The position numbers were made by a program, and so were the translations under genes. DNA of 64,000 bases from Candidatus Woesearchaeota archaeon (lineage in GTDB: Archaea > Nanobdellota > Nanobdellia > Woesearchaeales > WJIZ01), in contig JAAOYF010000017.1 in NCBI GenBank assembly GCA_018221205.1, positions 863 through 64,862 on the forward strand. Direction: 5' to 3'. Each line of letters begins with the position of its first letter. Position 1 is the stretch's first letter. Under the pieces are notes generated by a model. That model saw only the letters and a list, made by a program, of their open reading frames with translations. It was not told the origin of the DNA and made no database searches. Shown one piece after another: positions 37,350 to 63,269 of this stretch.

Positions 37350-37354
37350 AAAGG

Positions 37355-37470
37355 ATGGACAGCTTTCTTGGGTTCCCGTACGAAAGTACAGTACAACCAA
37401 AAACGGAAGCCGGTTTAACTGCCGAGTTCGAAATGGGATCGGGTGAACCCAGCCCCTATGGCCGTCCACT
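37355..37470 (-). rRNA. rrf: 5S ribosomal RNA
   Basis: The minus-strand read GGACGGCCAUAGGGGCUGGGUUCACCCGAUCCCAUUUCGAACUCGGCAGUUAAAC...GUUGUACUGUAC...GUACGGGAACCC...GCUGUCC has the universally conserved 5S loop sequences and a helix I that pairs 5' GGACGGC with 3' GCUGUCC. A T5 tract follows the 3' end and a TATA box lies 22-31 nt upstream. Ends are uncertain to ±3 nt. Confidence 0.8.
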
Positions 37471-41198: not shown

Positions 41199-42215
41199 TT
41201 AATTCGGTTTCATCCGTGAAGAGCCATAATCCTCCATTGCCACTTCCTTCTTCTGAGAAAGCTCAAAAAACTTCTGAAAATCGATGAACCGATACTGCTT
41301 TTTGTCTTTTCTGATGAATAAGATGACGCGAGAGGGTTTGTGATCATCGACAATCTCATAATCAAGCATTATTTTCTCTAATTTTTTTGCAAACTCACTC
41401 ACATAAGCATGATAAGGCATATTTTCTTTCTTCAATATCCTTATAGACACTCCGACATGGACATATCCTTTGACTTCGATGAAATCTGGCTTACCGCGCT
41501 CAATCAATTCCTTATATCCTTCAAGATCACTATCATTCTGGCCTTTGATGATCGTCAATCTTATCGTGCTTCGATATTTTTTCTTAGCCATGATGTCCAG
41601 ACATTTCAGCAATCGCTCATAATAATCATCGAACAAAGGCCGATCGATCTTCTTCAGCAATTTTTTGTTAGGTGCATCCACAGAGATGTACATCTGCGTC
41701 ACATTTTTCACTTTCTCCATCTGTTCTGGATATTGGCCGTTCGTGACTAAGAAAGTAGATATCTTTCTTCTATGGAATTCATCAAGAATCTCATTCATCC
41801 GTGGATAGGTGATTGGTTCTCCAGTGAGAGACAAAGCAACATGGCGGACATCTTCCCAACTTCGATGAAGTTTTTTAGGTACTTTAGGATTTCCTCCCAT
41901 TCCTTGCAATAATCCAATCTGCTCGTCGATAGCATGTTCGACAATATGCTTAGGATCATCGATCGGCCCGTACCAATCCTTGCTTACAGGGGCCTTTTGC
42001 CCTCTCCAACAGAACGTGCATCGATTAGCGCAGAACATTGATGTGGTCATCTGTAAGCATTGATGGCTTCGGATGCCGTAGAAAGTGAATTTGTAGCATC
42101 CTCCCTCATTCCTAAGAAATTTTCGGGTCCAGAGGCATACTTTGACAGCGCTATGATTGCCTACGAATCGATACTGCTGCTTTATCAGGTTTTTTTTGGC
42201 GAAATCACTTAACAT
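41199..42215 (-). CDS. taw1: tRNA 4-demethylwyosine synthase (radical SAM, TYW1/Taw1)
   Basis: YRFVGNHSAVKVCLWTRK...CYKFTFYGIRSHQCLQMTTSMFCANRCTFCWR has the radical-SAM CxxxCxxC plus an upstream Cys cluster, as in archaeal Taw1. Confidence 0.7.
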   Translation of the reverse strand: MLSDFAKKNLIKQQYRFVGNHSAVKVCLWTRKFLRNEGGCYKFTFYGIRSHQCLQMTTSMFCANRCTFCWRGQKAPVSKDWYGPIDDPKHIVEHAIDEQIGLLQGMGGNPKVPKKLHRSWEDVRHVALSLTGEPITYPRMNEILDEFHRRKISTFLVTNGQYPEQMEKVKNVTQMYISVDAPNKKLLKKIDRPLFDDYYERLLKCLDIMAKKKYRSTIRLTIIKGQNDSDLEGYKELIERGKPDFIEVKGYVHVGVSIRILKKENMPYHAYVSEFAKKLEKIMLDYEIVDDHKPSRVILFIRKDKKQYRFIDFQKFFELSQKKEVAMEDYGSSRMKPN

Positions 42216-42915
42216 TTTCTAGTGCTTGTATCGGATCAAGTGCATCATTGATATTGATCAAAGGCTTTGGCATATGTGCAATATCATCAAACCCTATCCG
42301 TGGACAGGCAGTATTGACCCAGCATTCGATGAATGGGTAATTTTCCATCTCGCTGAAGTCAAAAGTATCGCCGACAAACACAAAATATTCTTTATCAGCC
42401 TTCTCTTTGAGCAAAAGTGCATTTTTCAAGTACTGCTGGCCTGTTTTTGTGCTGACAAGTATACCTATTTTCTTAGATGCGACATATCTTGTAAGATTTG
42501 CTTTGTACTTCTTCAATTGTTTTTCCAGATCTGCTTGTGTAAGCACACTCATTTCAGTTGTCCGAGGATTGAATTGTATGACATCGATCTTTTTCTGTGC
42601 CAATATCAATGCTTTAGGATGGAATAATCCGTCTCCGATATAGAGAATGGCGTCTGCATGAGAGATATCTTCAGAAAAAGAGTTAGCAAAACAGTCGCAG
42701 CCGAGCAATTGATATTTTCCAGAAGTTCGTTTGCCGTGTGCAGCGATGATTTTAATACTCAATTCTGTTAATTGTTCTTCGACTCTTTCCAATGTGATGA
42801 ATTGGACACTTCCAAACAAAGCAATCTTCTTGAAACACTTGATTCTGTCCAGAACTTCTTGAGATAGTTCTATCTTCTCCTTAAAATATCCTGGAACAAG
42901 CATGAATTCTACCAT
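42205..42915 (-). CDS. dph2: Diphthamide synthesis Dph2 (2-(3-amino-3-carboxypropyl)histidine synthase), C-terminal 236 aa, separated from the N-terminal part by a frameshift
   Basis: ...LLGCDCFANSF...YIGDGLFHP...ECWVNTACPRIGFDD are Dph2 domain 2-3 motifs. Confidence 0.6.
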   Translation of the reverse strand: MVEFMLVPGYFKEKIELSQEVLDRIKCFKKIALFGSVQFITLERVEEQLTELSIKIIAAHGKRTSGKYQLLGCDCFANSFSEDISHADAILYIGDGLFHPKALILAQKKIDVIQFNPRTTEMSVLTQADLEKQLKKYKANLTRYVASKKIGILVSTKTGQQYLKNALLLKEKADKEYFVFVGDTFDFSEMENYPFIECWVNTACPRIGFDDIAHMPKPLININDALDPIQALENVK

Positions 42916-43181
42916 CCTTTCACATCCTTCACATATTTATTATGGCCGAATGCAATGACCAGATCGACTCCAAGAGCCTGAACACTGATAGGAAGATCGC
43001 ATGCACCAAAATTAGTCCCATACCACACTAAAATGCTTGCGTTAGTCTCCTTTTCAAGCTTAGGAACTAAGTGTTCAACTTCTGTCTTAAGCCCATCAGG
43101 CAATTGCAGAAGCACTTTCTTATAGTTTCCACTAATAATCTTCTCGATTATCTTGCTTTCCTCTAAATCATAGACTGACAT
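42909..43181 (-). CDS. dph2: Dph2 N-terminal 90-aa fragment (domain 1)
   Basis: YDLEESKIIEKIISGNYKKVLLQLPDGLK...GACDL...LGVDLVIAFGH. It ends in a stop 7 nt past the start of the C-terminal ORF, in a different frame. Confidence 0.6.
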   Translation of the reverse strand: MSVYDLEESKIIEKIISGNYKKVLLQLPDGLKTEVEHLVPKLEKETNASILVWYGTNFGACDLPISVQALGVDLVIAFGHNKYVKDVKGW

Positions 43182-43203
43182 GTCCTTATGTAGTTATAAT
43201 TTG

Positions 43204-43240
43204 CTTTATAAAGGCTATGCCTGCACAACGTTTTTAAAGC
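43204..43240. promoter_or_regulatory. Divergent promoter with palindromic TATA box ctttataaag (43204-43213) and tttttaaagc (43231-43240)
   Basis: The boxes lie 20-32 nt upstream of the dph2 start (43181, minus) and the GGR-like start (43260, plus). Confidence 0.45.
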
Positions 43241-43259
43241 AAAGGAGATTAGTTTTAGT

Positions 43260-44339
43260 ATGATTTCCGTCATAGGAGCAGGACCAGCTGGCTGCTATTA
43301 TGCCTCAAAAGAAAAGGGAGATGTCCACATCTTTGAAGAGCACGCTTCAGTAGGCAACCCTATAGCTTGCACTGGGATTCTGACAGATTCGGTGTTGCAA
43401 TTTACTGATATTCCCAAAGATCTCATCATCAGCAAGATAAATAAGTTCAAGATGGTCGCCCCGAATGGAAAATCCCTCTATGTCGACCTGAATAAGACTA
43501 ATATGGTACTGCATCGTGCCAAATTCGACCAGTTTGTCTTGCAGAAAGCCCTTGATAACGGAGCAAAACTTCATCTGAATGAAAAATTTCTTGGTTACAG
43601 ACAAAATGGCACTGCCTACAAACTGAAAACATCAAAAAAGACGTATGATTCTGAAATGATTATCGGTGCAGACGGCCCTCATAGTGCTGTCGCAAAAGCA
43701 GCAGGCATCTATGGAAAGAGAAAGTTCGTCAAAGGCTACCAGGCAAGGTGTAAGGTCAAAGATTTAGAAGAAGGTGTGACTGAAGTGCATCTCAATCTGG
43801 GAGAATTCTCTTGGGTCGTACCAGAAGACGATAAGATAGCACGAATAGGTGTTATCGGTGTCGATGATGAGAAGCTGAAAGCAGATTATAAGAAGCTCAT
43901 AGGGAATAGTGAAGTGCTTGAGGACCAATCTGGCATAATTCCTCTCTATAACCCGCGCCAGAAGATAAAAAAAGGAAACATATTTCTGCTCGGAGATGCT
44001 GCAACCCATGTAAAAGCCTCGACGTATGGTGGGATAATCTATGGGATGATAGCTGGTGATTACTTGGCCAAGAATAAAGGGACATTCGTAAGCAATATCA
44101 ACAAGAAATTATCAAAAGATTTATGGATAAGCTTGAAGATGAGGAATATGATGAATGCCATGAACGAAAAACAGGCTAATGAATTGATAGATATCTTCGA
44201 AAAAAAGAGGAATAATAAGATTCTTTCAGAGTATGACAGGAATTTCCCGAGCAAATTCATCGTTCAGCTATTGATGAAAGAAGCAAAACTTTGGAAATTA
44301 GGTTTCAAGATATTCGCAAACAGGGCTTTAGGAAAATGA
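43260..44339 (+). CDS. Geranylgeranyl reductase family FAD-dependent oxidoreductase
   Basis: MISVIGAGPAGCYYA (GxGxxG FAD site)...IGADGPHSAVAK...LLGDAA. Confidence 0.7.
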   Translation: MISVIGAGPAGCYYASKEKGDVHIFEEHASVGNPIACTGILTDSVLQFTDIPKDLIISKINKFKMVAPNGKSLYVDLNKTNMVLHRAKFDQFVLQKALDNGAKLHLNEKFLGYRQNGTAYKLKTSKKTYDSEMIIGADGPHSAVAKAAGIYGKRKFVKGYQARCKVKDLEEGVTEVHLNLGEFSWVVPEDDKIARIGVIGVDDEKLKADYKKLIGNSEVLEDQSGIIPLYNPRQKIKKGNIFLLGDAATHVKASTYGGIIYGMIAGDYLAKNKGTFVSNINKKLSKDLWISLKMRNMMNAMNEKQANELIDIFEKKRNNKILSEYDRNFPSKFIVQLLMKEAKLWKLGFKIFANRALGK

Positions 44340-45520
44340 CAGTCGAAGTAAGAGTAGGAAAGATCGGCATTGGTGGAGATAATCCTGTCCGCATTCAATC
44401 TATGACCAATACCCCTACCCAAGACGAGAAAGTGACTGCTAAACAGATAATGGAATTAGCAGATGCTGGCTCAGAATTAGTCCGTTTTACGATAATGGAT
44501 GGTCATGGTGCAGAAAAAGTAGTAAAGATCAAGGAGATTCTTGAGAAAGAGAAATATGACGTGCCTTTGATTGGAGATTTTCATTTCAACGGCCATTTAT
44601 TGTTAGAAAGATTCCCTGATATGGCTCAGATTCTTGATAAATACCGGATCAATCCCGGAAATGTTGGCCATGGTGAGAAACATGATCCGAATTTCCGCAT
44701 CATGATCGAAAAAGCAATCGATAATAAGAAACCTGTCCGAATCGGGGTGAATTTCGGCTCTATCGACAAACAAGTGTATATGAAATTGATGGATGAGAAC
44801 AAAGAAAAAAGCTCTGAAGAACTTGCTATCGATGCGATGGTCGTATCAGCCATGCAATCAATAAAGAAAGCGATTGAATATGGACTAGGAAAAGATAAGA
44901 TAATTGTCTCAACAAAAGCAAGTAGTGTTCCATCGATGATCCGAGCGTATGAAGAACTCGCAAAAAGGACAGACCAGCCCCTGCATTTGGGCGTGACAGA
45001 AGCAGGTATGGGTGATAAAGGTATCATTGCCTCAACAGCTGGTCTATCAACACTCTTGCAGCAAGGGATTGGAGACACTATTAGGGTCTCTTTGACACCT
45101 GAGCCTGGCTCTTCTCGGACAAAGGAGGTTGAAGTGGCTCAACAGATCCTACAGCAGAATGGACTGAGACAGTTTATGCCCATAGTGATCAGCTGCCCGG
45201 GGTGCGGTCGGACAACCTCTATCTTATTCCAAGAAATCGCAAAGGAAATAACTGAATATCTTAAAGAAAATGCTCCAAAATGGAAAAAAGCCGGCTACAA
45301 AGGATTTGAAGATATGAAAGTAGCAGTCATGGGTTGCATTGTCAATGGTCCAGGAGAGAGCAAAGAAGCCAATATTGGTTTAAGTCTCCCCGGCGTAGGA
45401 GAAGACCCTGTCTCGCCGGTCTACATCGACGGCAAACCAGTAGAAAAGCTGAAAGGAGACAAAAGAATCGATGACTTCAAGAAGTTGATTGATGATTATG
45501 TGAAAAGTCATTACGGTTAA
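44336..45520 (+). CDS. ispG: 4-hydroxy-3-methylbut-2-enyl diphosphate synthase (IspG/GcpE)
   Basis: PVRIQSMTNT...INPGNVG...RIGVNFGS...GVTEAGMG...SCPGCGRT...GCIVNGPGE matches all conserved IspG blocks including the 3-Cys Fe-S site. Start at the internal Met (ATGA overlap). Confidence 0.85.
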   Translation: MTVEVRVGKIGIGGDNPVRIQSMTNTPTQDEKVTAKQIMELADAGSELVRFTIMDGHGAEKVVKIKEILEKEKYDVPLIGDFHFNGHLLLERFPDMAQILDKYRINPGNVGHGEKHDPNFRIMIEKAIDNKKPVRIGVNFGSIDKQVYMKLMDENKEKSSEELAIDAMVVSAMQSIKKAIEYGLGKDKIIVSTKASSVPSMIRAYEELAKRTDQPLHLGVTEAGMGDKGIIASTAGLSTLLQQGIGDTIRVSLTPEPGSSRTKEVEVAQQILQQNGLRQFMPIVISCPGCGRTTSILFQEIAKEITEYLKENAPKWKKAGYKGFEDMKVAVMGCIVNGPGESKEANIGLSLPGVGEDPVSPVYIDGKPVEKLKGDKRIDDFKKLIDDYVKSHYG

Positions 45521-45566
45521 AGTTCTTTTCGAAACATATAAGAACATAAGCTCTTCAAAAAGTTCA

Positions 45567-46544
45567 ATGCAAGCAAGTAAATATATTTGGGAAGTTCTAC
45601 CAGATATTTCAAGAACCTTTGCCTATACTATCCCCAAATTGCCTCCAGGACTTGATTTTGATACTGCACTGACCTACGCGATGTATCGTATTATAGATAC
45701 CATTGAAGATTCTCCGCTAGCACTTGCTAAGAAGACAGAATTAATGGATTTATTTTTCAGTCTTTTTGAGAGTGAGAAAAATTTAACCAGATTTCAAGAA
45801 GAAGTAAAATCAATTCCAAAAAACCAGTATAGTGGTCTGCTTGCAAACGCTTTTAAGATTGTTGAAGCGTTAAAGTCCCGACCGATAGATATCCAAAAAA
45901 CAATTCTCGGGGGTGGGAAAAAGATGGCTGGGGGGTTTCTCAGAGAGGAAGTTCAGCAAATTAACACCTTAGAGGATCAGAACATCTATTGCTATTATGC
46001 AGCAGGTCTGGTGGGAGAAGTTATGAATGAGTTGACCATGCATCACCACCTTATCACAAAGGAGAAAAGTGTAGAACTAAAAGAAAAAGCAAAAGGGATA
46101 GGTCTAGCTTTTCAAAAAGTGAACATCCTTAAAGACATTAAGGTTGATATGGACGAAGACAGGTTCTATTGGCCAAAAGATATCCTAGAAATGAATAATG
46201 TGACTTACTTGACCATCGGAAAAGATGGACATATGGAAGATTCGCTGTCGGTGATTGGTGATTTAACTAAAGATGTAAAACACTATTTTGATCAAGGCTT
46301 AGGATTCATAAACGGGCTCCCGCATAAGCCAGCAGGCCTGCGAATTTTTTGGGCAATCAATCTTATGATGGCAATAGCGACCGTTCGCGTTATTAGGGAT
46401 CCTGCATTATTTGATGATACTATCAAGATTACACGATTAGAAGTAATGGCAATTGATGCAGCAGTGACAAAATGTGTTGAAAATAAAGAAAGTCTAAATC
46501 AGTTAGCACATGCCGTTGCGAAATCAGATATATCCGTATCCTGA
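45567..46544 (+). CDS. Squalene/phytoene synthase family (head-to-head prenyl synthase, SQS/HpnC-HpnD-like)
   Basis: RIIDTIEDS (first Asp-rich motif of SQS), YCYYAAGLVGEVM, GLAFQKVNILKDIKVDMDEDRFYWP (second motif). Confidence 0.7.
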   Translation: MQASKYIWEVLPDISRTFAYTIPKLPPGLDFDTALTYAMYRIIDTIEDSPLALAKKTELMDLFFSLFESEKNLTRFQEEVKSIPKNQYSGLLANAFKIVEALKSRPIDIQKTILGGGKKMAGGFLREEVQQINTLEDQNIYCYYAAGLVGEVMNELTMHHHLITKEKSVELKEKAKGIGLAFQKVNILKDIKVDMDEDRFYWPKDILEMNNVTYLTIGKDGHMEDSLSVIGDLTKDVKHYFDQGLGFINGLPHKPAGLRIFWAINLMMAIATVRVIRDPALFDDTIKITRLEVMAIDAAVTKCVENKESLNQLAHAVAKSDISVS

Positions 46545-46559
46545 ATTGAATCAATATAA

Positions 46560-47480
46560 TCATTCCAAACCGGGGGGCATGATAAAGGTGACTTTCTCAG
46601 TGACGTGATCTAGGGTTTGTATTGTACAAGAAGTGTTTTTCTTTCTGATAGCTGTGATGACTCCTTCAACAAGATAATCAGGAACACTCGCACCAGAAGT
46701 TATCCCCAAGGTTTCGATATTTTCCAGCCATTCTTCTTCAATTCCCTTCTCATCCGGGATAAGATATGATTCCGTGCCAGAATATTTGGCAGTTTCCATT
46801 AATCTGACTGAATTCGAGCTTGTAGGGCTGCCGACAACAAGGATAAGTTCTGCCTGCTGTGCCATTTCCTTGACCGCACCTTGCCTGTTCGTTGTCGCAT
46901 AGCAGATATCCTCTTTCGGCGGTGCCTCGGCTTGGGGATATCTCGCTAAGATCTCCCCCATAATCTCCCTCATATCATCAATTGATAATGTTGTCTGTGT
47001 CAAAATGACGATTTTCTCATTATTCAGAGCAAGCTGCTTGACATCTTCAACATTCTCGACGAGATGCATCGGCGAAATGGCCGTAACACCGACAGCTTCT
47101 TGATGTCCTTTATGGCCGATATAGATGATGTCATACCCGTTTCTATGGAATCTCCGTGCCTCAACATGCACTTTCGTTACTAAAGGACATACTGCATCTA
47201 TTGGGAGGATGCCCATTTCAGCCGCTTTTTCCTTCAAAGCAGGTGGACTGCCATGTGCACTGAAGATGACTTTGCTTCCTTTAGGCACCTCATCCAAAGA
47301 TTCGACAAATATCACTCCTTTCTTCTCCAATTCCTTGACAACATGGGCATTATGAACGATTGCGTGCCTTACATAGATGGGTTTGCCGAATTTCTCTAGG
47401 GCTTTCTCTACAATATCGATTGCTCTGCTCACTCCGGCACAATATCCTCGTGGGCTTGCAAGAATGATTTTCTTGACCAT
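46560..47480 (-). CDS. ispH: 4-hydroxy-3-methylbut-2-enyl diphosphate reductase (IspH/LytB)
   Basis: PRGYCAGVSRAI...VRHAIVHN...SAHG...AVCPLVTKVH...ICYATTNRQ...VVGS.TSSNS shows all three Cys ligands and the conserved blocks. Confidence 0.85.
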   Translation of the reverse strand: MVKKIILASPRGYCAGVSRAIDIVEKALEKFGKPIYVRHAIVHNAHVVKELEKKGVIFVESLDEVPKGSKVIFSAHGSPPALKEKAAEMGILPIDAVCPLVTKVHVEARRFHRNGYDIIYIGHKGHQEAVGVTAISPMHLVENVEDVKQLALNNEKIVILTQTTLSIDDMREIMGEILARYPQAEAPPKEDICYATTNRQGAVKEMAQQAELILVVGSPTSSNSVRLMETAKYSGTESYLIPDEKGIEEEWLENIETLGITSGASVPDYLVEGVITAIRKKNTSCTIQTLDHVTEKVTFIMPPGLE

Positions 47481-47553
47481 ACTCCTTACGACTCCTCGAT
47501 AACTTATAAAGATTATGCATAGATTTAAAAGAAAAAAGCGAACTCAACAGTTC

Positions 47554-48822
47554 ATGAAAGTACAGTTCATAACACAAGGATGTAGTGCAAATCAGGCAGA
47601 TTCTGAGATAATGGCAGGACTGTTGAAGAGGAAAGGCTATGAGATAACAGATGATGCCAAAACAGTTGTCTTCAATACCTGCACGGTAAAAGGCCCGACT
47701 GAATCATTCTATAGAAGAAAACTGAAAAAACTGGAAGAGGAAGGAAAGAAAATCATCATCGCAGGCTGCATTCCACAAGCAAAAGGCCCTCTAAAAGATC
47801 ATTCTACTGTAGGCAACTTCCAATTAGAGAAGATTGAAGAGGCAATCAAAGAGACAGCTAAAGGAAATGTTGTTTCTTTCCTAGAAAGAAACCATAAATC
47901 ACGGTTGAATCTGCCAAAAATAAGATCAAGAGAGACGATTGAGATCGTTCCCATATCTGATGGCTGTTTGAGTTCATGTTCATTCTGCAAGACAAAGCAT
48001 GCAAGGGGAAATTTATACTCATATCCTGAAAAAGACATCGTAAGACATATCAGCAACGCAGTTCGAGAAGGTGCAAAAGAAATCTGGCTCACTTCTCAAG
48101 ACAGTTCTGCATATGGCCTGGACAATAAAACAAATTTAGCTGAATTATTGAAGAAAATAGTAGAGATTCCAAGAGATTTTCGATTACGGGTAGGTATGGC
48201 CAACCCCGATTACTTCAAATCTTTCTTAGATGAATTTATTGAAGTCATGAAAAATGAAAAGATCTTCAAGTTCTGCCATATTCCAGTGCAATCCGGCAAC
48301 AATTCAGTATTGAAAGATATGAAAAGGAATTATACCGTCGAGGAATATAAGCGAATTGTAAGAAAGATAAAGAAAGAGATTCCTGAAATAAACATCGCAA
48401 CAGACATCATCTGTGGGTTTCCGACAGAAACAAAAGAGCAATTCAACGATACGTTAAGATTAGTCAAAGAAACCAGGCCAGATATCATCAATATCTCCCG
48501 TTTTTGGCCTCGTCCTGGAACGCCGGCAGCAAGAATGGAGCAGATCGGAGGCAGAGAGATCAAAAAAAGGACAAGGTTGCTGACAGAACTCTTTCGCAAA
48601 GTCGCAGAAGAGAATAATAAGAGCTGGCTTGGCTGGAAAGGCAAGATCTGGATCAACGAAAAAAGAAAAAATAGCTCTATGCTAGGAAGAAACTTCGCCT
48701 ACAAGCAAGTGGTTGTTCCAGGAACATTCAAGATAGGCCAAGAACTGGATGTTGAAGTGATTGATTCAACATCCTTCTATCTGAGAGCAAAAATATTAGA
48801 GAAATCTATTTCTTCCGTCTAA
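47554..48822 (+). CDS. MiaB-like tRNA methylthiotransferase (radical SAM MTTase, archaeal/eukaryal e-MtaB type)
   Basis: MKVQFITQGCSANQADSE...NTCTV (UPF0004 domain), ISDGCLSSCSFCKTKH (CxxxCxxC), C-terminal TRAM domain. Confidence 0.75.
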   Translation: MKVQFITQGCSANQADSEIMAGLLKRKGYEITDDAKTVVFNTCTVKGPTESFYRRKLKKLEEEGKKIIIAGCIPQAKGPLKDHSTVGNFQLEKIEEAIKETAKGNVVSFLERNHKSRLNLPKIRSRETIEIVPISDGCLSSCSFCKTKHARGNLYSYPEKDIVRHISNAVREGAKEIWLTSQDSSAYGLDNKTNLAELLKKIVEIPRDFRLRVGMANPDYFKSFLDEFIEVMKNEKIFKFCHIPVQSGNNSVLKDMKRNYTVEEYKRIVRKIKKEIPEINIATDIICGFPTETKEQFNDTLRLVKETRPDIINISRFWPRPGTPAARMEQIGGREIKKRTRLLTELFRKVAEENNKSWLGWKGKIWINEKRKNSSMLGRNFAYKQVVVPGTFKIGQELDVEVIDSTSFYLRAKILEKSISSV

Positions 48823-49273
48823 AAATAACAAACTCCCATTCATCATGGTCTTCTTTCTTCTCGATTTCCCATTCAGTTTCATCCCATTGTGGAAAGAAAG
48901 TATCTCCTTCATACTCTTTTTTGATGAAAGAAAGGTACATCTTATCGAGTTTGTCAATAGTCTGCCTGTAGATCTCGGCTCCGCCAATGACAAATATTGT
49001 TTTTTCATACGATTTTGATTTCTCTAATGCTTCATCAACACTTTTAGCTGTTTCACAGCCCTCAATCTTGTCCATAGAACGAGAAATGACAATATTTACT
49101 CTGTTCGGCATCGGCCTATTGATGCTTCTATAGGTCTTGCCGCCCATAATCACAACAGAATCCTTTGTTTGCTTCCTAAAATGATCCAATTCTTCCTTGA
49201 TATCCCACGGCATCCAGTTATCTTTACCGATAACGTGTTTCTTCTTCGTCATTGCTGCAATTGCTATTATCAT
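48806..49273 (-). CDS. folA: Dihydrofolate reductase
   Basis: MIIAIAAMTKKKHVIGKDNWMPWDIKEELDHFRK..TKDSVVIMGGKTY...IFVIGGAEIY. Confidence 0.8.
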   Translation of the reverse strand: MIIAIAAMTKKKHVIGKDNWMPWDIKEELDHFRKQTKDSVVIMGGKTYRSINRPMPNRVNIVISRSMDKIEGCETAKSVDEALEKSKSYEKTIFVIGGAEIYRQTIDKLDKMYLSFIKKEYEGDTFFPQWDETEWEIEKKEDHDEWEFVIFRRKK

Positions 49274-50133
49274 ATGGCTATGGGGAATTTTATATGTGGA
49301 TGACTTTCATAATCCTCCACCGTACTATCAGTGTATTTCCAATCAAAGATTGATGTAAACTCTGTTTTTATCGTCGGCAATTTCTTCGGCTCTCTGCTGA
49401 TCTGCTCTCTTACGCCTTCGACATGATTATCATAGATATGTGTATCTCCCAGAAATCCAACGAGTTTTCCTTCCTCAAATCCAGATTCCTTAGCAAGGAG
49501 ATGCAACAACAGAGCATAACTCGCAATATTGAAAGGTAATCCTAACATAGTATCAACAGAACGCTGGTTCCACAACAAATTCAATTTGTTTCCTATGACA
49601 TTCACCTGGATAGACCAATGGCAAGGTGGCAAGGCCATTTTCTTAAGATCAAGAGGATTCCATGCTGACATGATCATTCTTCTGCTCGTCGGCTCTTCTT
49701 TAAGCAATCTGATGATTTCTTTAAGCTGATCAAATCCCTTTCCAGTATAAGAAGTATGTTGATCTTGATAGTCAGCACCGAAAAAACGCCATTGGAATCC
49801 GTAGACAGGTCCCAGATCCTTTTCTTCCATCATTTTCTTCTGTGCTTCTTCACTATGGCCGTAAGGCACTTTAGTAGGAGAGCACCATTCATCCCAGATA
49901 TGGTTCTTTCTCTCCTGCAGCCATGCTTTGTCAGTCTTGCCCTTGATAAAAAACTCCAGTTCAGAAGCAACTAACCGAAAAGGCACTTTCTTCGTCGTCA
50001 GAAGAGGAAATCCTTCACTCATATCATGCTCGAATTTCACTCCAAAAACTGCTTTATTCCCTACTCCGGTCCTGTCTTTCTTCGCCACCCCTTTCTCTAG
50101 GATGTGTTTGACAATATCTAAGTAACCCCTCAT
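49270..50133 (-). CDS. thyA: Thymidylate synthase (ThyA type)
   Basis: DRTGVG...PLLTTKKV...SAWNPLDL..MALPPCH...DTHIYDNH. ATGA overlap with folA. Confidence 0.9.
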   Translation of the reverse strand: MRGYLDIVKHILEKGVAKKDRTGVGNKAVFGVKFEHDMSEGFPLLTTKKVPFRLVASELEFFIKGKTDKAWLQERKNHIWDEWCSPTKVPYGHSEEAQKKMMEEKDLGPVYGFQWRFFGADYQDQHTSYTGKGFDQLKEIIRLLKEEPTSRRMIMSAWNPLDLKKMALPPCHWSIQVNVIGNKLNLLWNQRSVDTMLGLPFNIASYALLLHLLAKESGFEEGKLVGFLGDTHIYDNHVEGVREQISREPKKLPTIKTEFTSIFDWKYTDSTVEDYESHPHIKFPIAI

Positions 50134-54082: not shown

Positions 54083-55576
54083 TTATGGGATAGTTATCGT
54101 AGCTATTGCATAGAGTATGGGGAATTCATTGCGATATTCGGGCCTGACTCGTAAGATCGTTATTCCTTCTTTCTGGTCTTTTTCCACAGGATTCCCGGCT
54201 TTATCTGCCACAAGAACAGCGACACAGTAAGTTTTCCCTGGCATGAACAGCCCAAGAACATCATTCTTCTCTCTTCGTTGCCCGCCTAGGACCCCTTCAC
54301 CATCCATAGTGACAACGTCAGTGCAATCTCCTTCCTTGATATAATAGTAAACATCAAGATTTTCCTCAGCCAGATCCATAGTGATGTCGCTTACAGTTAA
54401 TTGAAGATTTGTTGCTGCCGGAGGAGCGAGCCTATCTTGTGGGGTGAATGTTCTGGTGAGAGGGTCTGCCATATTGCTGTTCTTATCGACTCCGGTGATA
54501 GTGAAGGTATATTCCTTGTCCTCAAGATTAGGGATAAGGTAATGATACAAAGAATCTGAATAAAGGAAAAATGATTTCATCTCTTTTACATAAGGTTGCG
54601 CATCTTTTATTGAAGCAGAAAGCGATGTTGAATCAAATTCGATGTTGAAATGATCAATGTCCTTATCATCGGCCTTCCATGAGAGAATGACTCCTTTGTC
54701 CAGTTTAGAGGCTATCTCTACAACCAATCCACCAAGCTGCGGTGCTGTGTCTCTGAAATAGACCGCAAATTTGACTTTTTGTTGTTTCTCTGAAAGCCCT
54801 TTCCCCTGAGGGATTAGATAATGGTTATTGGTCGAGGCGCAGAACAAGAATGTCCTGTCATCATCATTATCCTTCTTCTCACAATCGATTTCTAATAATA
54901 TGATTTGTCTCTTATTGAAATCATCGACTGCTTTGGTTACGCAGCTGGAAAGCTGCGCACTCCTCTCGCAATCTACAACATCAGAAAAGATCTGAGAGAA
55001 TTCTTGCCATAAAGTATCATAGATGGAAGTATCATAGGCAAGAGTGAGGTCAAAACTAGGTTTCAAAGTAAGATTCCCTATCTTATCGTTCTTGAATTCT
55101 ATAGGCTGCACAAGATTCTGCAATGCAATGCCTATGATCTGCAGTCCTCTATTCTCTCGGCTGTAGAATTCATAGTCGATATCCAAGCCTGCTTTATCCA
55201 GGTTGCTTTTGAGAAGCGGAAGAAGCGCTTGATGGAGGTTCTTGAACAGGATATTCTGTTCTGGAAAGCAGATGCTGTCTTTTGTCTGCCACAAGACATA
55301 TTCTACGCTGCCGCAGGGAAACGTTTGATAATATCCTCCTCTCTCCTCTAAAAGAGAGAGTGCCTGATAGGAAGAGAATTTCGCAGCGTGGTCAATATAG
55401 AACAAGGATTGCTGTTGCTTGCTTGAGATGTCCAAGATCTCAAACTGCAGTTCCCCTATCTTGGCAGAGAAATCCCCTTTCATGTTGTCGAGAGTGATGA
55501 ACAGGCTGGGAAAGATCATGCCGATCATGAAAAGTGACAGCAGCAGTATGAACACCATCCCTTTTTTTGATCTCAT
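54083..55576 (-). CDS. Secreted or cell-surface protein with a class-III (prepilin-like) signal peptide; function unknown
   Basis: N-terminus MRSKKG|MVFILLLSLFMIGMIF, the rest hydrophilic. Last gene of the long minus-strand operon. Confidence 0.5.
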   Translation of the reverse strand: MRSKKGMVFILLLSLFMIGMIFPSLFITLDNMKGDFSAKIGELQFEILDISSKQQQSLFYIDHAAKFSSYQALSLLEERGGYYQTFPCGSVEYVLWQTKDSICFPEQNILFKNLHQALLPLLKSNLDKAGLDIDYEFYSRENRGLQIIGIALQNLVQPIEFKNDKIGNLTLKPSFDLTLAYDTSIYDTLWQEFSQIFSDVVDCERSAQLSSCVTKAVDDFNKRQIILLEIDCEKKDNDDDRTFLFCASTNNHYLIPQGKGLSEKQQKVKFAVYFRDTAPQLGGLVVEIASKLDKGVILSWKADDKDIDHFNIEFDSTSLSASIKDAQPYVKEMKSFFLYSDSLYHYLIPNLEDKEYTFTITGVDKNSNMADPLTRTFTPQDRLAPPAATNLQLTVSDITMDLAEENLDVYYYIKEGDCTDVVTMDGEGVLGGQRREKNDVLGLFMPGKTYCVAVLVADKAGNPVEKDQKEGITILRVRPEYRNEFPILYAIATITIP

Positions 55577-56019
55577 GTATACCCCAGGATTGCTAGTCGT
55601 ATCGGTAATGGTCCTTCAGGACTCGCGATGTCCATCGATTGTTCAAGAAGCACCTGTTTTTTCTCACAATCTACACTGTACAGCGTCTGATCATCCTGCC
55701 ACAATGCCCAGCATATGGGCTGTGCCTGTCCATATACACTGTTCAATGCATGATTGATTACATTCTTTGCCAGATCCCTTGACGGATTTTCAATAGTGAG
55801 CAGGACTTCATCTGCAACAGTGGTTGATTCGGTCACAGGGGTCTGCAGGATGCTGATGAGGATGCCTTTGTCATCAAGATAGCCTTTCTGGATTGAGATT
55901 TCATACGTGATATCTCCGATAAGGAATGAATAAGCGACAAACCATGCTACCATCCCCAAAAAGAAGAAAAACCAACCTAGCATATCTGTAAATATGCCCA
56001 AAAATCCTTTCTTATTCAT
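55573..56019 (-). CDS. Small pilin-like protein (class-III signal peptide)
   Basis: MNKKG|FLGIFTDMLGWFFFFLGMVAWFV. 4-nt overlap with the downstream gene. Confidence 0.5.
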   Translation of the reverse strand: MNKKGFLGIFTDMLGWFFFFLGMVAWFVAYSFLIGDITYEISIQKGYLDDKGILISILQTPVTESTTVADEVLLTIENPSRDLAKNVINHALNSVYGQAQPICWALWQDDQTLYSVDCEKKQVLLEQSMDIASPEGPLPIRLAILGYT

Positions 56020-56473
56020 ATTCCACCGTCTTTATCTGCATCTTTCCCTCGCTTCCGTTGTGGCTGACGAGATATCTCCAGAAAAGATTATCATGAAATT
56101 TGCTGAATTTTGACAAAGGCTCATCTCTCTCAAACCATTTTTGATTGTAGAAGATCTCCTTCTGCTGCCCATCTCTCTCTAAGATGATCCGTGCGCTGAA
56201 CGTGTCCTCTGCATCGTCAGCCCTAATCAATTCCTCTGGTAACTTTTCCTTGATCACACCAGGATATGTCCGCAACGCGAGTGGTGATTCGTGGCTCAAT
56301 TCTCCATAGATCGCGCGATGAGAGAAGATCACAGCCCGAAGATCATAAAGTTCAATCTTGTTGTTGACATGCGTACTCACGAGCAGCCACAACGTGAAGA
56401 AGATGATGACTAGGAAAAGCATTCTCCAGAATCCATAATTCAGTATCTTGAATCCATCTCCTTTTTTGTTCAT
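56012..56473 (-). CDS. Small pilin-like protein (class-III signal peptide)
   Basis: MNKKG|DGFKILNYGFWRMLFLVIIFFTLWLL. Confidence 0.5.
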   Translation of the reverse strand: MNKKGDGFKILNYGFWRMLFLVIIFFTLWLLVSTHVNNKIELYDLRAVIFSHRAIYGELSHESPLALRTYPGVIKEKLPEELIRADDAEDTFSARIILERDGQQKEIFYNQKWFERDEPLSKFSKFHDNLFWRYLVSHNGSEGKMQIKTVEYE

Positions 56474-57477
56474 ATGAACCCCGAATGTAAGGCAATCTTC
56501 AAAGCCTGGAGCTTTTCTGTAGTGAACTCCTCTTTGATACTTATCTCTATGATAAGCTGTGCCGGATTTCCTATCTTTTCTTCAAGGGTGAATGCTGATG
56601 CAGGTATCGATGCAGAGATTTCTGTGCCGAATCCATCATCGACAAGGCCATTGACAAGGCTGCATGAAAGCCCGATCAGATCAGCATTATCAGCAAAGTA
56701 GTAGCTCTTGACTGAATCAGTGCTTTGTTTGTCAGAGAACAGAAGATAGGTGATTGTCCCTGAGGCAGCATCCCTTTTCTTGATCTCTCCTCGCTCTCCC
56801 AGGAAATTCTTGACATCAAGATAGGGATCATTATCCTCTGTGATGAAGACCAGATCAGTGATAGGCCTGGATTTAGGGCAATTAAGAAAGTTTGGCTGCT
56901 TTTCTTCAAGTGTCGAGCTCACGGTGAGTTGATTAGGCGTCTTATAGAAGTAAAGATTCATGCCTTCTTCTCTCTTCACTTTGTTTTTGCGCAGCACCTC
57001 AAGTATAGGCATATACTTTGAGATGAATCCTTTCTTCGGCGGCTGGATATTTGAAGTGAGCAGCGCTGGTTTGATGGTAACAGAAGGGTTCTGGATGAAA
57101 TGCTCTCGTTCTCTCTCTGTGGTTGGTTCATCTCTTTTCTCAAAGACCTCGATCCGGTCTGTCTTGAGTTCCAGTCCGAACCAATAAGTATCTTGAGGAT
57201 AATGCAAAAATGCATTTCCCGGAACCGAAAGTAAAGTATCTGTCAATAGCGCAGTATCTTTTGCCAATAGTCTCTTCTGATAGAATGATTGCTCTCCTAC
57301 TTCTCCGATATAGCGGAAGATAAGAAGGAGTATAACAAGAAGTATGAAAAGATCGATGAACCAAAAGATGGCCTCTCCCTCTACACCCTTTTTTCCCAGT
57401 AGTTTAGCAGTAAACATTGACTCCTTTCTCACTTTTCCGTAATGTGCATGTATAGGTAACAGCATTCTCTTCATCAA
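56470..57477 (-). CDS. Pilin-like or secreted protein (class-III signal peptide); alternative start Met21 at 57417
   Basis: ...MFTAKLLGKKG|VEGEAIFWFIDLFILLVILLLIF followed by a ~280-aa hydrophilic domain. Confidence 0.5.
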   Translation of the reverse strand: MMKRMLLPIHAHYGKVRKESMFTAKLLGKKGVEGEAIFWFIDLFILLVILLLIFRYIGEVGEQSFYQKRLLAKDTALLTDTLLSVPGNAFLHYPQDTYWFGLELKTDRIEVFEKRDEPTTEREREHFIQNPSVTIKPALLTSNIQPPKKGFISKYMPILEVLRKNKVKREEGMNLYFYKTPNQLTVSSTLEEKQPNFLNCPKSRPITDLVFITEDNDPYLDVKNFLGERGEIKKRDAASGTITYLLFSDKQSTDSVKSYYFADNADLIGLSCSLVNGLVDDGFGTEISASIPASAFTLEEKIGNPAQLIIEISIKEEFTTEKLQALKIALHSGFI

Positions 57478-57868
57478 GCTTCGGCTCTGCCCTGAAATCC
57501 TCGACTAAGGCCTTCTCCAGCTCAATGCATTTCTTCAGTGCCTTGTTCTGGCAGTTTGAATCCTTGATACAGATGCACACGCAGGATTTTGTTGACGTGC
57601 ATCCTAATTGGCTGATCCCTTTGGTGAATCCTTGGATTTCATGGATCTCATCGATGTACATGGGAATTTGCTCCTCGATCTTCACCATGTTATCGATCTC
57701 TATCTGTAATCGTTCAAGGCTGCTCCTCGTTCCAGTCTCAAGATCCTGGACCCAGTAGCCGGTGAGCATGATGAAGATTTTCCATGCGATGAAAGAAAGT
57801 AAGACAAAGAACAATACCTCGATGAACAGCTTGATGCCGAATCCTTTCTTATTGACAGGTCGAAGCAT
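57404..57868 (-). CDS. Pilin-like protein (class-III signal peptide) with a Cys-rich C-terminus
   Basis: MLRPVNKKG|FGIKLFIEVLFFVLLSFIAW. Seven Cys in the C-terminal half. The ORF track's longer start (57907) would overlap the upstream gene by 59 nt. Confidence 0.45.
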   Translation of the reverse strand: MLRPVNKKGFGIKLFIEVLFFVLLSFIAWKIFIMLTGYWVQDLETGTRSSLERLQIEIDNMVKIEEQIPMYIDEIHEIQGFTKGISQLGCTSTKSCVCICIKDSNCQNKALKKCIELEKALVEDFRAEPKLDEENAVTYTCTLRKSEKGVNVYC

Positions 57869-58136
57869 CCTTGGTCCGTAGACTCCATTCCTCTCCTTTG
57901 CATTCATACAAATCTTTCCCTCTGCATTCCGTTTGTCCTGATGTGCATTTTCGTAATCCTAATCCTTCTAAAGCCTCGTTATTGCCGTCTCCTGCCCCCC
58001 GAGTAAGCTCCTTGAACGCATCAGAGATGCCTCCCATCCTTCCGGTGAAGATCGCGATGATGACAAACAATACTACAAGCAGAATAGCCGCGACAATCAC
58101 TGTATTCATCGTTAATTCCATTCCTTTTTTCATCAT
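57849..58136 (-). CDS. Small archaeal type IV pilin-like protein (class-III signal peptide, Cys4 C-terminal domain)
   Basis: MMKKG|MELTMNTVIVAAILLVVLFVIIAIFTGR, then C-x7-C-x7-C-x13-C. Confidence 0.6.
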   Translation of the reverse strand: MMKKGMELTMNTVIVAAILLVVLFVIIAIFTGRMGGISDAFKELTRGAGDGNNEALEGLGLRKCTSGQTECRGKDLYECKGEEWSLRTKDASTCQ

Positions 58137-58870
58137 CTCACCATCATATATGTTATGTCTTGTTCATCTCCCCTCATGAGAGCAACCAAGCTTGATTGTG
58201 ATATCTCCCCAATGACGATGCCTCCTCTCCGTGCGCTCGCCTCATACCATCCTATATTCTCGATCTTATCGATATACACACCATTTTGGCCTGAAGAGAA
58301 ATCAAAAGGCCGTTGACTGATCTTTCCTCTGAAATCATTTGCCCAGAGGATATTCGTGAATTCCAGTTCTCTCTTCCAATCCTCATCGACAAAGATATAG
58401 AACACGAATCTACCTTCCTCTTCTCGTGCAAGAACAAAGCCGTTGATGATGCCGTCATGAGGATCAAATTCATGCCCGATGCTCATCGCAACTAATTCAT
58501 CAGCCAATGCCCTCTTTTCAGACAGGCCCATCCCTCGTGTCTTGTTAAAAAAATCAGCAGGCAGATATTCTGAATCGAATTCCTCTCCTTTGTACATCCC
58601 TTGATAGAAGAATGAAGTCAATCCTTCAGAGGTGAAATAATCCTGCTGTGATTTCAACGTCTTTAAGCTGCCTTCTGTCGCCAGATACGTGTCGACGACA
58701 ACCTCTGCAGGATCTGTCGGGCTTTCATACACCCAATCTGAAGGATTATCAGTGAAGAATACTTTCTCTCGAGTAGGCTTCGGTGTCAATTCAGATATTA
58801 AGAATATCCCGGCAACTACCAAAACCAAAACTAATCCTATAATGATGATTATCTTCTTCATATTAATCAT
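58133..58870 (-). CDS. Secreted or anchored protein (N-terminal hydrophobic anchor), function unknown
   Basis: MINMKKIIIIIGLVLVLVVAGIFLI, then a hydrophilic acidic domain. Confidence 0.45.
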   Translation of the reverse strand: MINMKKIIIIIGLVLVLVVAGIFLISELTPKPTREKVFFTDNPSDWVYESPTDPAEVVVDTYLATEGSLKTLKSQQDYFTSEGLTSFFYQGMYKGEEFDSEYLPADFFNKTRGMGLSEKRALADELVAMSIGHEFDPHDGIINGFVLAREEEGRFVFYIFVDEDWKRELEFTNILWANDFRGKISQRPFDFSSGQNGVYIDKIENIGWYEASARRGGIVIGEISQSSLVALMRGDEQDITYMMVR

Positions 58871-61847: not shown

Positions 61848-61993
61848 GTTCCGAAAAGATTATCTAAAAGGGCAAACGAGCTCCCCTTGAATTTTCCGAT
61901 GATCAGTAGGATGACGATAAGTACTAAGAGTACAAAGAGGAACCATCCGATAAAGTCCCATGTTATTGCTTTCTTCAGGCGAGTACGTCGCAT
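61844..61993 (-). CDS. Unannotated small ORF (49 aa), single-TM protein, translationally coupled to the 994-aa gene
   Basis: Manual translation gives MRRTRLKKAITWDFIGWFLFVLLVLIVILLIIGKFKGSSFALLDNLFGT. Its TGA overlaps the ATG of the downstream gene (ATGA). Confidence 0.35.
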   Translation of the reverse strand: MRRTRLKKAITWDFIGWFLFVLLVLIVILLIIGKFKGSSFALLDNLFGT

Positions 61994-62820
61994 ATTTGAG
62001 CCACCTCACTGTAAAGTACTACATCCATCACATTGACAAATTCCTTTCCTTCCTCTGTCTCAATGCTTAGCCAATTCTCCTTGATATAATCCCATGCGCT
62101 AGATGAAAGAGCATCTACTTGATGTTGGTTTATTGCCTTGAACACAATAGCGTAGGATTCTTTCAAAGAATAATCATAATAGGGAAACTGAAACGCATCT
62201 ACGGGATCCAGCGTCAGTTCATAATAGCTGATCTCATGATACTTGGGTTTTTTCGACCGCATATAATTATCGAGTGTAAGATCCAGACCAGAGTATTCTA
62301 ATGGACCGAATTTTGAATAGCGGACTTCATTATCTATGATACCCTCGAATTTTTTCTGGACAGAAGTATCAAAGGTGAATTGCGCGCACATCACACATTG
62401 TCTGCTCGTGTCCCATGCATCCAACACTTGCAGCCTGCCTTGAGCAAATTGGTCCCAGCAGTCAAATATCAACCCAGAGATGACTTTATTGGAGGCATTG
62501 AGATAGCATTCCTGACCTTTCTCATTGTCGAGTTTCCCGCATTTGATCTTGTGCTCAGTATCTGTCTTCCTAGATTCAATAGTGTATTTATTCTCAAAGA
62601 GCGTGACATATCTGGTTGGACAATCAAGTTCAAAGCCTTCTGTATTGGCGACCGGCAACCTGCCTTTTGAGTTCCAGATGACTGATTGTACACAGGTCTG
62701 TTTATCATAGAAAGGGGATGTTCCCTGATCTATCTTCTTGATGAGCAGCATCCCTATTCCGCTCACTACCAAAGCGAGGATAAGCATAGCCAAAAACCCA
62801 GCTGCGATTCCTTTTTTCAT
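61975..62820 (-). CDS. Pilin-like or secreted protein (class-III signal peptide) with a Cys-rich domain
   Basis: MKKG|IAAGFLAMLILALVVSGIGMLLI. Eight Cys in the mature part. Confidence 0.5.
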   Translation of the reverse strand: MKKGIAAGFLAMLILALVVSGIGMLLIKKIDQGTSPFYDKQTCVQSVIWNSKGRLPVANTEGFELDCPTRYVTLFENKYTIESRKTDTEHKIKCGKLDNEKGQECYLNASNKVISGLIFDCWDQFAQGRLQVLDAWDTSRQCVMCAQFTFDTSVQKKFEGIIDNEVRYSKFGPLEYSGLDLTLDNYMRSKKPKYHEISYYELTLDPVDAFQFPYYDYSLKESYAIVFKAINQHQVDALSSSAWDYIKENWLSIETEEGKEFVNVMDVVLYSEVAQICDVLA

Positions 62821-63008: not shown

Positions 63009-63263
63009 TTATCCTTCAATCAGGCAACAGACCTTATTTGGAGGCACATCATAGAATTGCCCATTGACAGGGCTTCCTTTCTCTAGACAATCAGACTTAG
63101 AAAGGGTGCTTTTATTCTCTCCGGCGCAAGACACGCTTGCTGTACTTTTTTCCAGATCATCAGTGAAGGAGATGATGCCTGAAAAGAAAAAGAGGACAAT
63201 CACAAGAAAGATAACAGCAGAGATAACAGCAAAGACTTTAGTGGGATTGACGGTTACCATCAA
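63009..63263 (-). CDS. Small pilin-like protein with an N-terminal TM helix and a Cys4 C-terminal domain (paralog of 63270-63572)
   Basis: Hydrophobic VFAVISAVIFLVIVLFFF, then C-x12-C-x20-CC. Confidence 0.5.
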   Translation of the reverse strand: MMVTVNPTKVFAVISAVIFLVIVLFFFSGIISFTDDLEKSTASVSCAGENKSTLSKSDCLEKGSPVNGQFYDVPPNKVCCLIEG

Positions 63264-63269
63264 CCCATG

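Follow-up and report, generated by a model that had tools for sequence, protein, structure and literature searches.

A three-layer isoprenoid locus in a Woesearchaeota archaeon: a resident geranylgeranyl-reductase-family gene, a long-type IspG/IspH pair, and a squalene-synthase-like gene

A 64,000-nucleotide stretch of DNA from a Candidatus Woesearchaeota archaeon (the window) carries at positions 43260-47480 four intact, uninterrupted open reading frames (ORFs), taken from the ORF list, whose predicted products all belong to isoprenoid metabolism. [quoted passage not shown] They are followed by a gene for a 325-aa putative head-to-head prenyl-diphosphate synthase resembling squalene synthase (SQS; 45567-46544, forward; PF00494), and by a gene on the opposite strand for IspH/LytB, the HMBPP reductase, of 306 aa and of the "long" proteobacterial/actinobacterial-like type (46560-47480, reverse; TIGR00216 and PF02401). 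A preliminary description made from the sequence alone had identified the same four genes, all of which are present and uninterrupted, and had interpreted them as a bacterial block acquired by an archaeon. We show here that the locus is instead a three-layer composite whose parts have three different evolutionary histories. The host is indeed archaeal, as had been supposed: the window IspH and SQS-like proteins are 100% identical to MBR9699283.1 and MBR9699282.1, respectively, which are encoded on a 67,594-bp contig of a Woesearchaeota (DPANN) metagenome-assembled genome (MAG), and the flanks of the locus contain archaeal genes for TYW1, Dph2, the primase small subunit PriS, RadA, and an RPA-like protein.

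The base composition of the region is flat, with a GC content of 0.40-0.41. Across the window, the GC content of third codon positions (GC3) has a mean of 0.47 (standard deviation 0.05) and the codon-usage distance a mean of 0.16 (standard deviation 0.04), and the distances of the GGR-like (0.11), IspG (0.15), and IspH (0.13) genes are ordinary by this measure. The SQS-like gene has a GC3 of 0.34 and a codon-usage distance of 0.24, which is the largest among the window genes of at least 300 codons. A comparison of composition with the flanks, which the preliminary description had proposed as a check on horizontal acquisition, thus shows three host-like genes in a region of uniform GC, with the SQS-like gene as the only compositional outlier.

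The GGR-like protein scores 176 bits against the NCBIfam model TIGR02032, "geranylgeranyl reductase family" (cutoff 158.8), placing it in the GGR superfamily, and alignment with the Thermoplasma GGR structure 3oz2 shows the FAD-binding motif GxGxxG, the catalytic Cys (in PIACTG), the sequence FSWVVP...G.IG corresponding to the Y/FxWxxP...G motif, and GDAA, all conserved, so that the earlier assignment to a GGR-family flavoenzyme is upheld. It is far under the equivalog cutoffs for digeranylgeranylglycerophospholipid reductases (46.4 versus 780 bits for NF041160, 36.5 versus 580 for NF041080, and 25.6 versus 700 for NF041385). The protein likely saturates prenyl chains, whether of lipid, dolichol, or squalene type, and its predicted substrate may accordingly be archaeol, dolichol, or a squalene-type hydrocarbon. 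The 3oz2 alignment ends at residue 271 of 359, and the C-terminal helix lies outside it; the last ~35 residues (FPSKFIVQLLMKEAKLWKLGF..., encoded by 44231-44339) hardly vary among relatives whose identity is otherwise 66-73%, and this helix may be membrane-binding or partner-binding.

The GGR-like gene is resident in DPANN and has counterparts of 66-73% identity in four relatives. A metagenome scan recovered 80 loci with GGR-like relatives, in archaeal contexts, often divergently oriented from a split Dph2 gene and near RadA. IspG adjoins the GGR-like gene in one of the 41 loci that have at least 1.3 kb of downstream sequence, or one of 24 when relatives of at least 56% identity are considered, and neither IspG nor IspH is present in any of the 24 metagenome loci that have at least 5 kb downstream. 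It is because its usual neighbor is Dph2, and almost never IspG, that we regard the gene as resident. A conserved GGR-like/IspG/IspH triad, as first read from four relatives, was dropped on the same 1-in-41 count. Other downstream neighbors, with translations read by eye, encode Pelota-like, ribosomal S6e-like, MFS, and ThiF-like proteins, with no isoprenoid theme.

On its upstream side, the GGR-like gene is separated from the divergent ORF for the Dph2 N-terminal part by a 78-bp AT-rich intergenic region (43182-43259), in which direct reading finds the TATA-like boxes TTATAA, TTTATAAA, and TTTTTAAA, with a GGAG ~13 nt before the GGR-like ATG. This region is a putative promoter. A sigma-70 scan gave 10 sites compared with 11.7 expected, from a bacterial consensus that is uninformative for archaea, and a scan for bacterial promoters and terminators gave no signal above shuffled expectation. 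On the downstream side, the IspG ATG overlaps the GGR-like stop codon by 4 bp (ATGA), which implies cotranscription of the two genes, and the GGR-like and IspG genes, perhaps together with the SQS-like gene, may form an operon. The neighboring Dph2 gene, for diphthamide synthesis (42205-43181, reverse), is itself split into overlapping ORFs for an N-terminal part of 90 aa (42909-43181) and a C-terminal part of 236 aa (42205-42915). The split, with adjoining ORFs in the same order, is found in many relatives (L007, L016-L018, L053, L078, and L097), and because of this recurrence it is a genuine lineage feature and not a frameshift error.

Both of the terminal enzymes are complete. IspG scores 431.8 bits against NF001540 (cutoff 345), 384.7 against TIGR00612 (cutoff 280.25), and 379.7 against PF04551, and it aligns over its full length (residues 4-393; 478 bits), N-terminal TIM-barrel domain included, with the Thermus IspG structure 4s38; an alternative TTG start is present at 44291. 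The [4Fe-4S] cluster ligands are retained, with SCPGCGRT and MGCIVNGPGES aligning with the region of Thermus Cys297, Cys300, Cys343, and Glu350, and the cluster-ligand residues are invariant in six DPANN long-type sequences. The window IspG is 62-71% identical to five DPANN relatives. In the case of IspH, which is convergent with the SQS-like gene across a 15-bp gap, the scores are 310.4 bits for TIGR00216 (cutoff 187.85) and 302.6 for PF02401 (cutoff 24.5). Relative to the Escherichia coli IspH it keeps the three Cys ligands of the [4Fe-4S] cluster and the equivalents of His41, His74, His124, Glu126, Thr167, Ser225-Asn227, and Ser269 (E. coli numbering), and the Cys ligands and catalytic residues are invariant in an 11-sequence alignment from DPANN and the candidate phyla radiation (CPR). 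The preliminary description of the pair as bacterial-type and complete, with its Fe-S ligands, thus holds for every catalytic residue aligned, and a loss of catalytic residues, which it had named as a possible objection, is not seen against either Thermus IspG or E. coli IspH. The enzymatic activities are those predicted from sequence. No electron-donor gene for IspG and IspH was found in the window; in relative L097 (JGI Ga0210057_1000177, 3843-9577), the long-type IspH/IspG pair directly follows a SUF operon (SufB, SufD, SufS, NifU-like, and SufC) and genes for a 2Fe-2S ferredoxin and an FNR-like FAD/NAD reductase. These genes are likely a maturation and electron-donor module for the two Fe-S reductases, and their presence as neighbors argues for a real reductase function of IspG and IspH.

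Castelle and Banfield reportedly described in 2018 a bacterial cluster of Woesearchaeota for the MEP/DOXP (2-C-methyl-D-erythritol 4-phosphate/1-deoxy-D-xylulose 5-phosphate) pathway, of which IspG and IspH are the terminal enzymes. The expectation of the preliminary description that archaea do not use this pathway is contradicted by work published for Woesearchaeota and DPANN between 2017 and 2021 (PMC5383146, PMC8204110, PMC8421398), and bacterial MEP genes in an archaeon are therefore not new. A 2017 groundwater study stated that DPANN use "either mevalonate or MEP/DOXP" (PMC5383146), Castelle et al. 2021 found the pathway, with co-located genes, in a monophyletic clade of 52 Woesearchaeota genomes (PMC8204110), and Huang et al. 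2021 reported MEP as the sole pathway found in the phylum, with an IspD/F fusion and with acquisition from bacteria inferred (PMC8421398). The canonical compact cluster is seen in L180 (GCA_016180235.1), where a 436-kb contig carries IspG (351 aa), then Dxr, IspDF, one further gene, IspE, IspH (320 aa), and a prenyl synthase. The window IspG and IspH are 39% and 33% identical, respectively, to these proteins and fall in different best NCBIfam subfamilies, so that they do not qualify as orthologues of the short-type cluster proteins, and all 13 of the 13 Woesearchaeota IspG rows read in the Huang 2021 alignment are of the short type. The window IspH is 47-52% identical to IspH of E. coli, Burkholderiales, and actinobacteria, among the matches listed, and the window pair is much closer to those bacterial proteins and to Thermus IspG than to L180.

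In a neighbor-joining tree computed without support values, a single clade holds ~55 long-type IspH sequences from DPANN, apart from the groups of CPR, Acidobacteriota, Actinomycetota, and proteobacteria, with the L180 type as a remote outgroup. Identities inside the DPANN clade are 54-66%, resembling those of the resident RadA and GGR-like proteins, and these resident-like identities, taken with the host-like codon usage, point to an acquisition of IspG and IspH that is old and was followed by vertical descent. Judged by their sequences, the window pair is a second, independent lineage of terminal Fe-S enzymes that is distinct from the published one.

The third element of the locus, the SQS-like protein, belongs to the squalene/phytoene synthase family, as the preliminary description had recognized from its DTIED and YCYYAAGLVG motifs. 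It scores 110 bits against PF00494 (SQS_PSY, cutoff 26), and its best family is the eukaryote-type TIGR01559 at 112.6 bits, ahead of HpnD (53 bits), CrtB (44.5), and HpnC (38.7). The best sequence match in the Protein Data Bank (PDB) is the Aspergillus flavus SQS 7wgh (92 bits), followed by human SQS (57 bits). An SRTF flap, DTIED, YCYY, QKVNILKDIKVD, RFYWP, and RIFW (containing the Phe288 equivalent) are all present, and these motifs are conserved across a DPANN clade of ~14 members (the window, L009, and P0122-P0133), a group to which all ~14 homologues exceeding ~37% identity among 5.8 billion proteins amount. An AlphaFold2 model of the protein has a pLDDT of 96.6, and its 41 best PDB fold matches are all SQS structures (TMq 0.75-0.81), with those of Trypanosoma cruzi, human, and A. 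flavus at the top; the fold includes the C-terminal helices that are absent from CrtM and CrtB, and matches to CrtM-type folds reach a TM of 0.64-0.70. From motifs and modeled fold, we conclude that this is a putatively functional head-to-head prenyl-diphosphate synthase, most like squalene synthase. It would use a C15 or C20 substrate, the products considered including one of the lycopaoctaene type, and probably carries out an NADPH-dependent reduction. Squalene synthase is mentioned in neither PMC8204110 nor PMC8421398, and literature searches for squalene synthase in DPANN gave nothing relevant.

The order GGR-like, IspG, a variable slot, and convergent IspH is also found in L007 (GCA_030647105.1), L009, and L010/L011 (GCA_018303125.1), and L023 has the GGR-like gene followed by IspG on a contig that stops with no IspH match. 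In L010, nothing lies between IspG and IspH. In L007 the slot is filled by an unrelated ORF of 555 aa with no Pfam match (10928-12595), and in L009 it holds an SQS-like gene whose product is 40% identical to that of the window and whose orientation is opposite. For the window SQS-like protein, the closest homologues (43-48% identical) are encoded in different archaeal surroundings, where neither IspG nor IspH is close by. As the slot is empty, differently filled, or occupied by an inverted gene in relatives, the SQS-like gene is no constant part of the locus. A 354-aa gene after the SQS-like homologue in L001 was tested as a GGR and is not one. Long-type IspH also stands alone, in L098 near GGR and UbiB. 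In L099, a Nanoarchaeia IspH is followed on the same strand by a cis-prenyltransferase gene (UppS-like; 10001-11708 for the two), with BacA, the undecaprenyl-diphosphatase, 7 kb away (18178-18939), and neither IspG nor any other MEP gene occurs within 10 kb of this IspH. The arrangement hints that the stand-alone IspH of L099 feeds carrier-lipid synthesis. An AA_kinase gene near the L099 IspH was considered as an isopentenyl phosphate kinase and ruled out, as it encodes an archaeal UMP kinase (TIGR02076, 201 bits).

We read the locus as a composite of a resident archaeal GGR-family gene, an anciently acquired bacterial-type long-type IspG/IspH pair whose IspG has presumably, in this sub-lineage, been joined to the GGR transcription unit through the 4-bp ATGA, and an accessory SQS-like gene in the variable slot between IspG and IspH. 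In the mechanism that we propose, IspG, with its [4Fe-4S] cluster, would convert 2-C-methyl-D-erythritol 2,4-cyclodiphosphate (MEcPP) to HMBPP, and IspH, also a [4Fe-4S] enzyme, would convert HMBPP to isopentenyl diphosphate (IPP) together with dimethylallyl diphosphate (DMAPP). A prenyl-diphosphate synthase encoded elsewhere would then form farnesyl diphosphate (FPP) or geranylgeranyl diphosphate (GGPP), two molecules of which would be joined head-to-head by the SQS-like enzyme, probably with reduction by NADPH, to give a squalene-type hydrocarbon, and the GGR-family enzyme would saturate prenyl chains. Both the long-type IspG/IspH lineage grafted on the resident GGR gene and the rare DPANN clade of SQS-like proteins appear to be undescribed in the literature searched.

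The first interpretation of the locus was that the reductase, IspG, SQS-like, and IspH genes constitute a single, recently transferred bacterial block, like those for hopanoid or squalene synthesis (hpn). The adjacency of four isoprenoid genes and the bacterial type of both IspG and IspH are in keeping with such an origin, and some bacterial hopanoid loci carry ispH. The individual histories of the genes are difficult to reconcile with it. The GGR-like gene is at home in DPANN and seldom has IspG beside it; IspG and IspH have ameliorated in composition and belong to a deep DPANN clade; relatives lack the SQS-like gene, have another ORF in its place, or carry it in inverted orientation; and its closest homologues are found in archaeal contexts that lack IspG and IspH. 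The notion of one horizontally acquired block is thus not borne out, with the SQS-like gene alone being odd in composition. The resemblance to an hpn locus fares no better: Pfam scans, which covered essentially all window ORFs of 150 aa and longer, revealed no hpn family in the window, Shc, HpnE, and HpnH included, and the SQS-like protein, which is of the eukaryotic FDFT1 type, is far below the HpnC (38.7 versus 250 bits) and HpnD (53 versus 279 bits) cutoffs. The single-block origin is largely refuted and we consider it very improbable. An assembly or binning artifact, in which a bacterial fragment was chimerically joined to an archaeal contig, would account for the bacterial affinity of IspG and IspH and for nothing else. 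Archaeal genes lie on both sides of the locus on a single contig, the GGR-IspG-IspH arrangement recurs across at least five independent assemblies (NCBI, ENA, JGI, and Logan), the GC content is uniform, and IspG overlaps the resident GGR gene, all of which leaves the artifact a negligible probability.

With regard to the pathway in which the pair operates, we somewhat favor a complete MEP pathway with long-type terminal enzymes, in which MEcPP is supplied by Dxs through IspF encoded elsewhere in the genome; the long-type pair would then either replace the usual short-type terminal enzymes or be present in addition to them. The source of MEcPP is the least certain part of this reading, and a number of observations weigh against it. 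The Pfam scans detected no Dxs, Dxr, IspD, IspE, IspF, or mevalonate enzyme in the window, and a tblastn search of the window with E. coli Dxs, Dxr, IspD, IspE, and IspF and with MEP proteins of the Woesearchaeota cluster matched IspG and IspH only, in agreement with the preliminary description, which had noted the lack of dxs, dxr, and ispDEF. No upstream MEP gene was found within 10 kb of the long-type IspH of eight relatives (L007-L011 and L097-L099, of which five also have long-type IspG), or within 10 kb of the L023 IspG. The canonical DPANN MEP genes are, moreover, compactly clustered with their own IspG and IspH, as in L180. As a weak indication, a comparison of the nine MAGs with long-type IspH and 13 Dxr accessions (from 10 of the at least 120 clusters described below) revealed no shared accession block. 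There is also no prenyl-diphosphate synthase in the window, so that the substrate supply of the SQS-like enzyme is unseen, and the SQS-like protein is below the NCBIfam squalene-synthase cutoff (112.6 versus 286.75 bits). In the Huang 2021 data, Woesearchaeota subgroups B, C, E, and I show IspH and no other MEP gene, and subgroup G has only ispH and ispE, each in ~1/30 MAGs (PMC8421398), which means that long-type IspH can exist without the pathway. In favor of an endogenous substrate, in no subgroup does the frequency of IspG exceed that of IspD, IspE, and IspF (Huang 2021 Fig. 3a, PMC8421398), and DPANN Dxr is very widespread: a Woesearchaeota Dxr query taken from the Huang 2021 supplementary alignment retrieved, under the names Woesearchaeota or Nanoarchaeota, at least 120 database clusters with identities of 66% or higher.

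The absence of visible upstream genes, in the 64 kb of the window and within 10 kb of the long-type loci inspected, is what would be expected if the genome lacked Dxs through IspF altogether and the long-type pair carried out a two-step salvage, converting MEcPP, HMBPP, or both from bacterial neighbors or hosts to the IPP and DMAPP that would go into carrier lipids, membrane lipids, and the SQS-like product. The preliminary description had already raised the idea that HMBPP might be salvaged. A stand-alone IspH salvaging HMBPP would then be the older state and IspG a later, backward extension. Several lines of evidence are consistent with such a salvage, including the occurrence of long-type IspH alone in archaeal contexts (L098, near GGR and UbiB, and L099, with the cis-prenyltransferase and near BacA), the subgroups in which IspH is the sole MEP gene (with ispE added at the same low frequency in subgroup G), the separate lineage of the long-type pair relative to the pair in the complete cluster, and, weakly, the finding that none of the retrieved Dxr accessions comes from the MAG of any of the nine long-type anchors. 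Under oxidative stress, MEcPP is accumulated and exported by bacteria, and the typical DPANN archaeon is a metabolite-scavenging episymbiont. Salvage is nevertheless a tentative alternative and rather unlikely, as MAGs are incomplete and the absence is seen at the scale of windows and loci, DPANN Dxr is very common, IspG is not above IspD, IspE, and IspF in any subgroup of the Huang data, and no transporter for highly charged diphosphates was identified among the adjoining genes; we know of no prokaryote for which uptake of MEcPP or HMBPP has been established. A bolder form of the same idea, which we regard as unlikely, is that a widespread DPANN lineage of stand-alone long-type IspH, to which a matching IspG has been added here, salvages HMBPP and MEcPP of bacterial origin in archaea lacking both a mevalonate and a complete MEP pathway, and that in a few lineages it feeds a DPANN-specific SQS-like enzyme whose product, a head-to-head C30 or C40 hydrocarbon, the adjacent GGR perhaps saturates. 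The unseen upstream genes would also suit a nonisoprenogenic role of IspG and IspH, in redox or stress signaling through MEcPP and HMBPP or in another reductive dehydroxylation, and partial MEP pathways with proposed roles of this kind are discussed for bacteria (PMC13001223). Such a role is improbable, given that every residue needed to bind the substrates and catalyze the HMBPP and MEcPP reactions is retained and that the neighbors are isoprenoid enzymes, GGR and the SQS-like protein here and the cis-prenyltransferase in L099.

Isoprenoid supply in DPANN archaea matters both for their membranes and for dolichol-type carriers, which would be needed by a glycan cluster on the same contig. This cluster of ~37 kb (311-37349) contains genes for glycosyltransferases, sugar-nucleotide epimerases and dehydratases, nucleotidyltransferases, methyltransferases, a Wzx-like flippase, an asparagine synthase, a CDP-alcohol phosphatidyltransferase, and a flippase-like domain protein. 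Such glycan assembly depends on a polyprenyl-phosphate carrier, and this carrier is a plausible outlet, among others, for the IPP that IspH would produce. For Woesearchaeota, the published work points to a single, laterally acquired, compact MEP cluster; the window adds a second, independent set of terminal enzymes, old enough to have taken on a host-like composition and coupled to a resident archaeal lipid gene. Should the upstream genes be present in the genome, as the reading we favor holds, this would be a case of xenologous replacement inside a transferred pathway; in their absence, it would provide the first sign of a route that salvages intermediates to make isoprenoid precursors, and of metabolic dependence on bacteria. 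For DPANN, the SQS-like clade would be the first indication found of the synthesis of squalene-type hydrocarbons.

Several other features were observed in the window. A stand-alone 5S rRNA gene lies at 37354-37469 (reverse; Rfam, 69.5 bits), and besides it there is no 16S rRNA, 23S rRNA, or tRNA gene in the 64 kb. On the far side of IspH, a MiaB/CDKAL-like radical-SAM gene has its listed start 34 bp from the IspH start (region 47515-47554), with a TATA-like TTATAAAG immediately before the listed start; its true start is probably 47554, because the conserved N terminus (MKVQFITQGC) begins 13 codons past the listed one. Adjacent genes for ThyA thymidylate synthase (PF00303) and dihydrofolate reductase (DHFR; PF00186) are present at 48806-50133 (reverse), and the pair is also found in L009 at 44-45% identity; this pairing is more usual in bacteria than in archaea. 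A run of ORFs without a Pfam match occupies 54083-62820 (reverse) and includes one of 994 aa (58863-61847). Finally, two small Cys-containing proteins are encoded at 63009-63572 (reverse), and their hydrophobic N-terminal segments are similar to archaeal pilin-type (class III) signal peptides.

Comparison with known systems places each of the layers. The bacterial hopanoid/squalene (hpn) loci share with the window a gene of the squalene/phytoene synthase family near ispH, but the window flavoenzyme is of the GGR family, whereas HpnE of the hpn loci is of the amine-oxidase family. With the archaeal GGRs, namely the Thermoplasma enzyme 3oz2 and the digeranylgeranylglycerophospholipid reductases, the window GGR-like protein has in common the superfamily, the FAD-binding motif, the catalytic Cys, and the FxWxxP motif; it differs in being shorter (359 aa) and divergent, and in its strongly conserved C-terminal helix FPSKFIVQLLMKEAKLWKLGF. 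The SQS-like protein has the same full-length fold as the FDFT1-type squalene synthases (human 1ezf and 3vj8, T. cruzi 3wca, and A. flavus 7wgh; TM ~0.8) and shares with them the SRxF flap, DTxED, the catalytic Tyr (YCxY, the Tyr171 equivalent), QxxN..D..D, RxxWP, and the Phe288 equivalent. It is, however, 19-23% identical to them, has DIKVD in place of DYLED as the second Asp-rich motif, is predicted to be soluble, and does not have the C-terminal membrane anchor of the FDFT1-type enzymes.

In the case of IspG and IspH, the window pair has the same domain layout as Thermus thermophilus IspG (4s38 and 2y0f) and E. coli IspH (3ke8 and 3f7t), with scores of 478 and 294 bits, respectively, in a host that, unlike theirs, is an archaeon. 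The nearest parallel is the published MEP cluster of Woesearchaeota, which belongs to the same phylum, represents the same phenomenon, in that horizontal transfer was inferred, and includes the same IspG and IspH reactions. The proteins of that cluster are Firmicutes-like and short-type, whereas the window encodes a Thermus-like IspG of 394 aa and a proteobacterial/actinobacterial-like IspH of 306 aa; and unlike the published cluster, the window pair is unlinked to upstream MEP genes and is attached to a resident GGR gene, in the company of an SQS-like gene.

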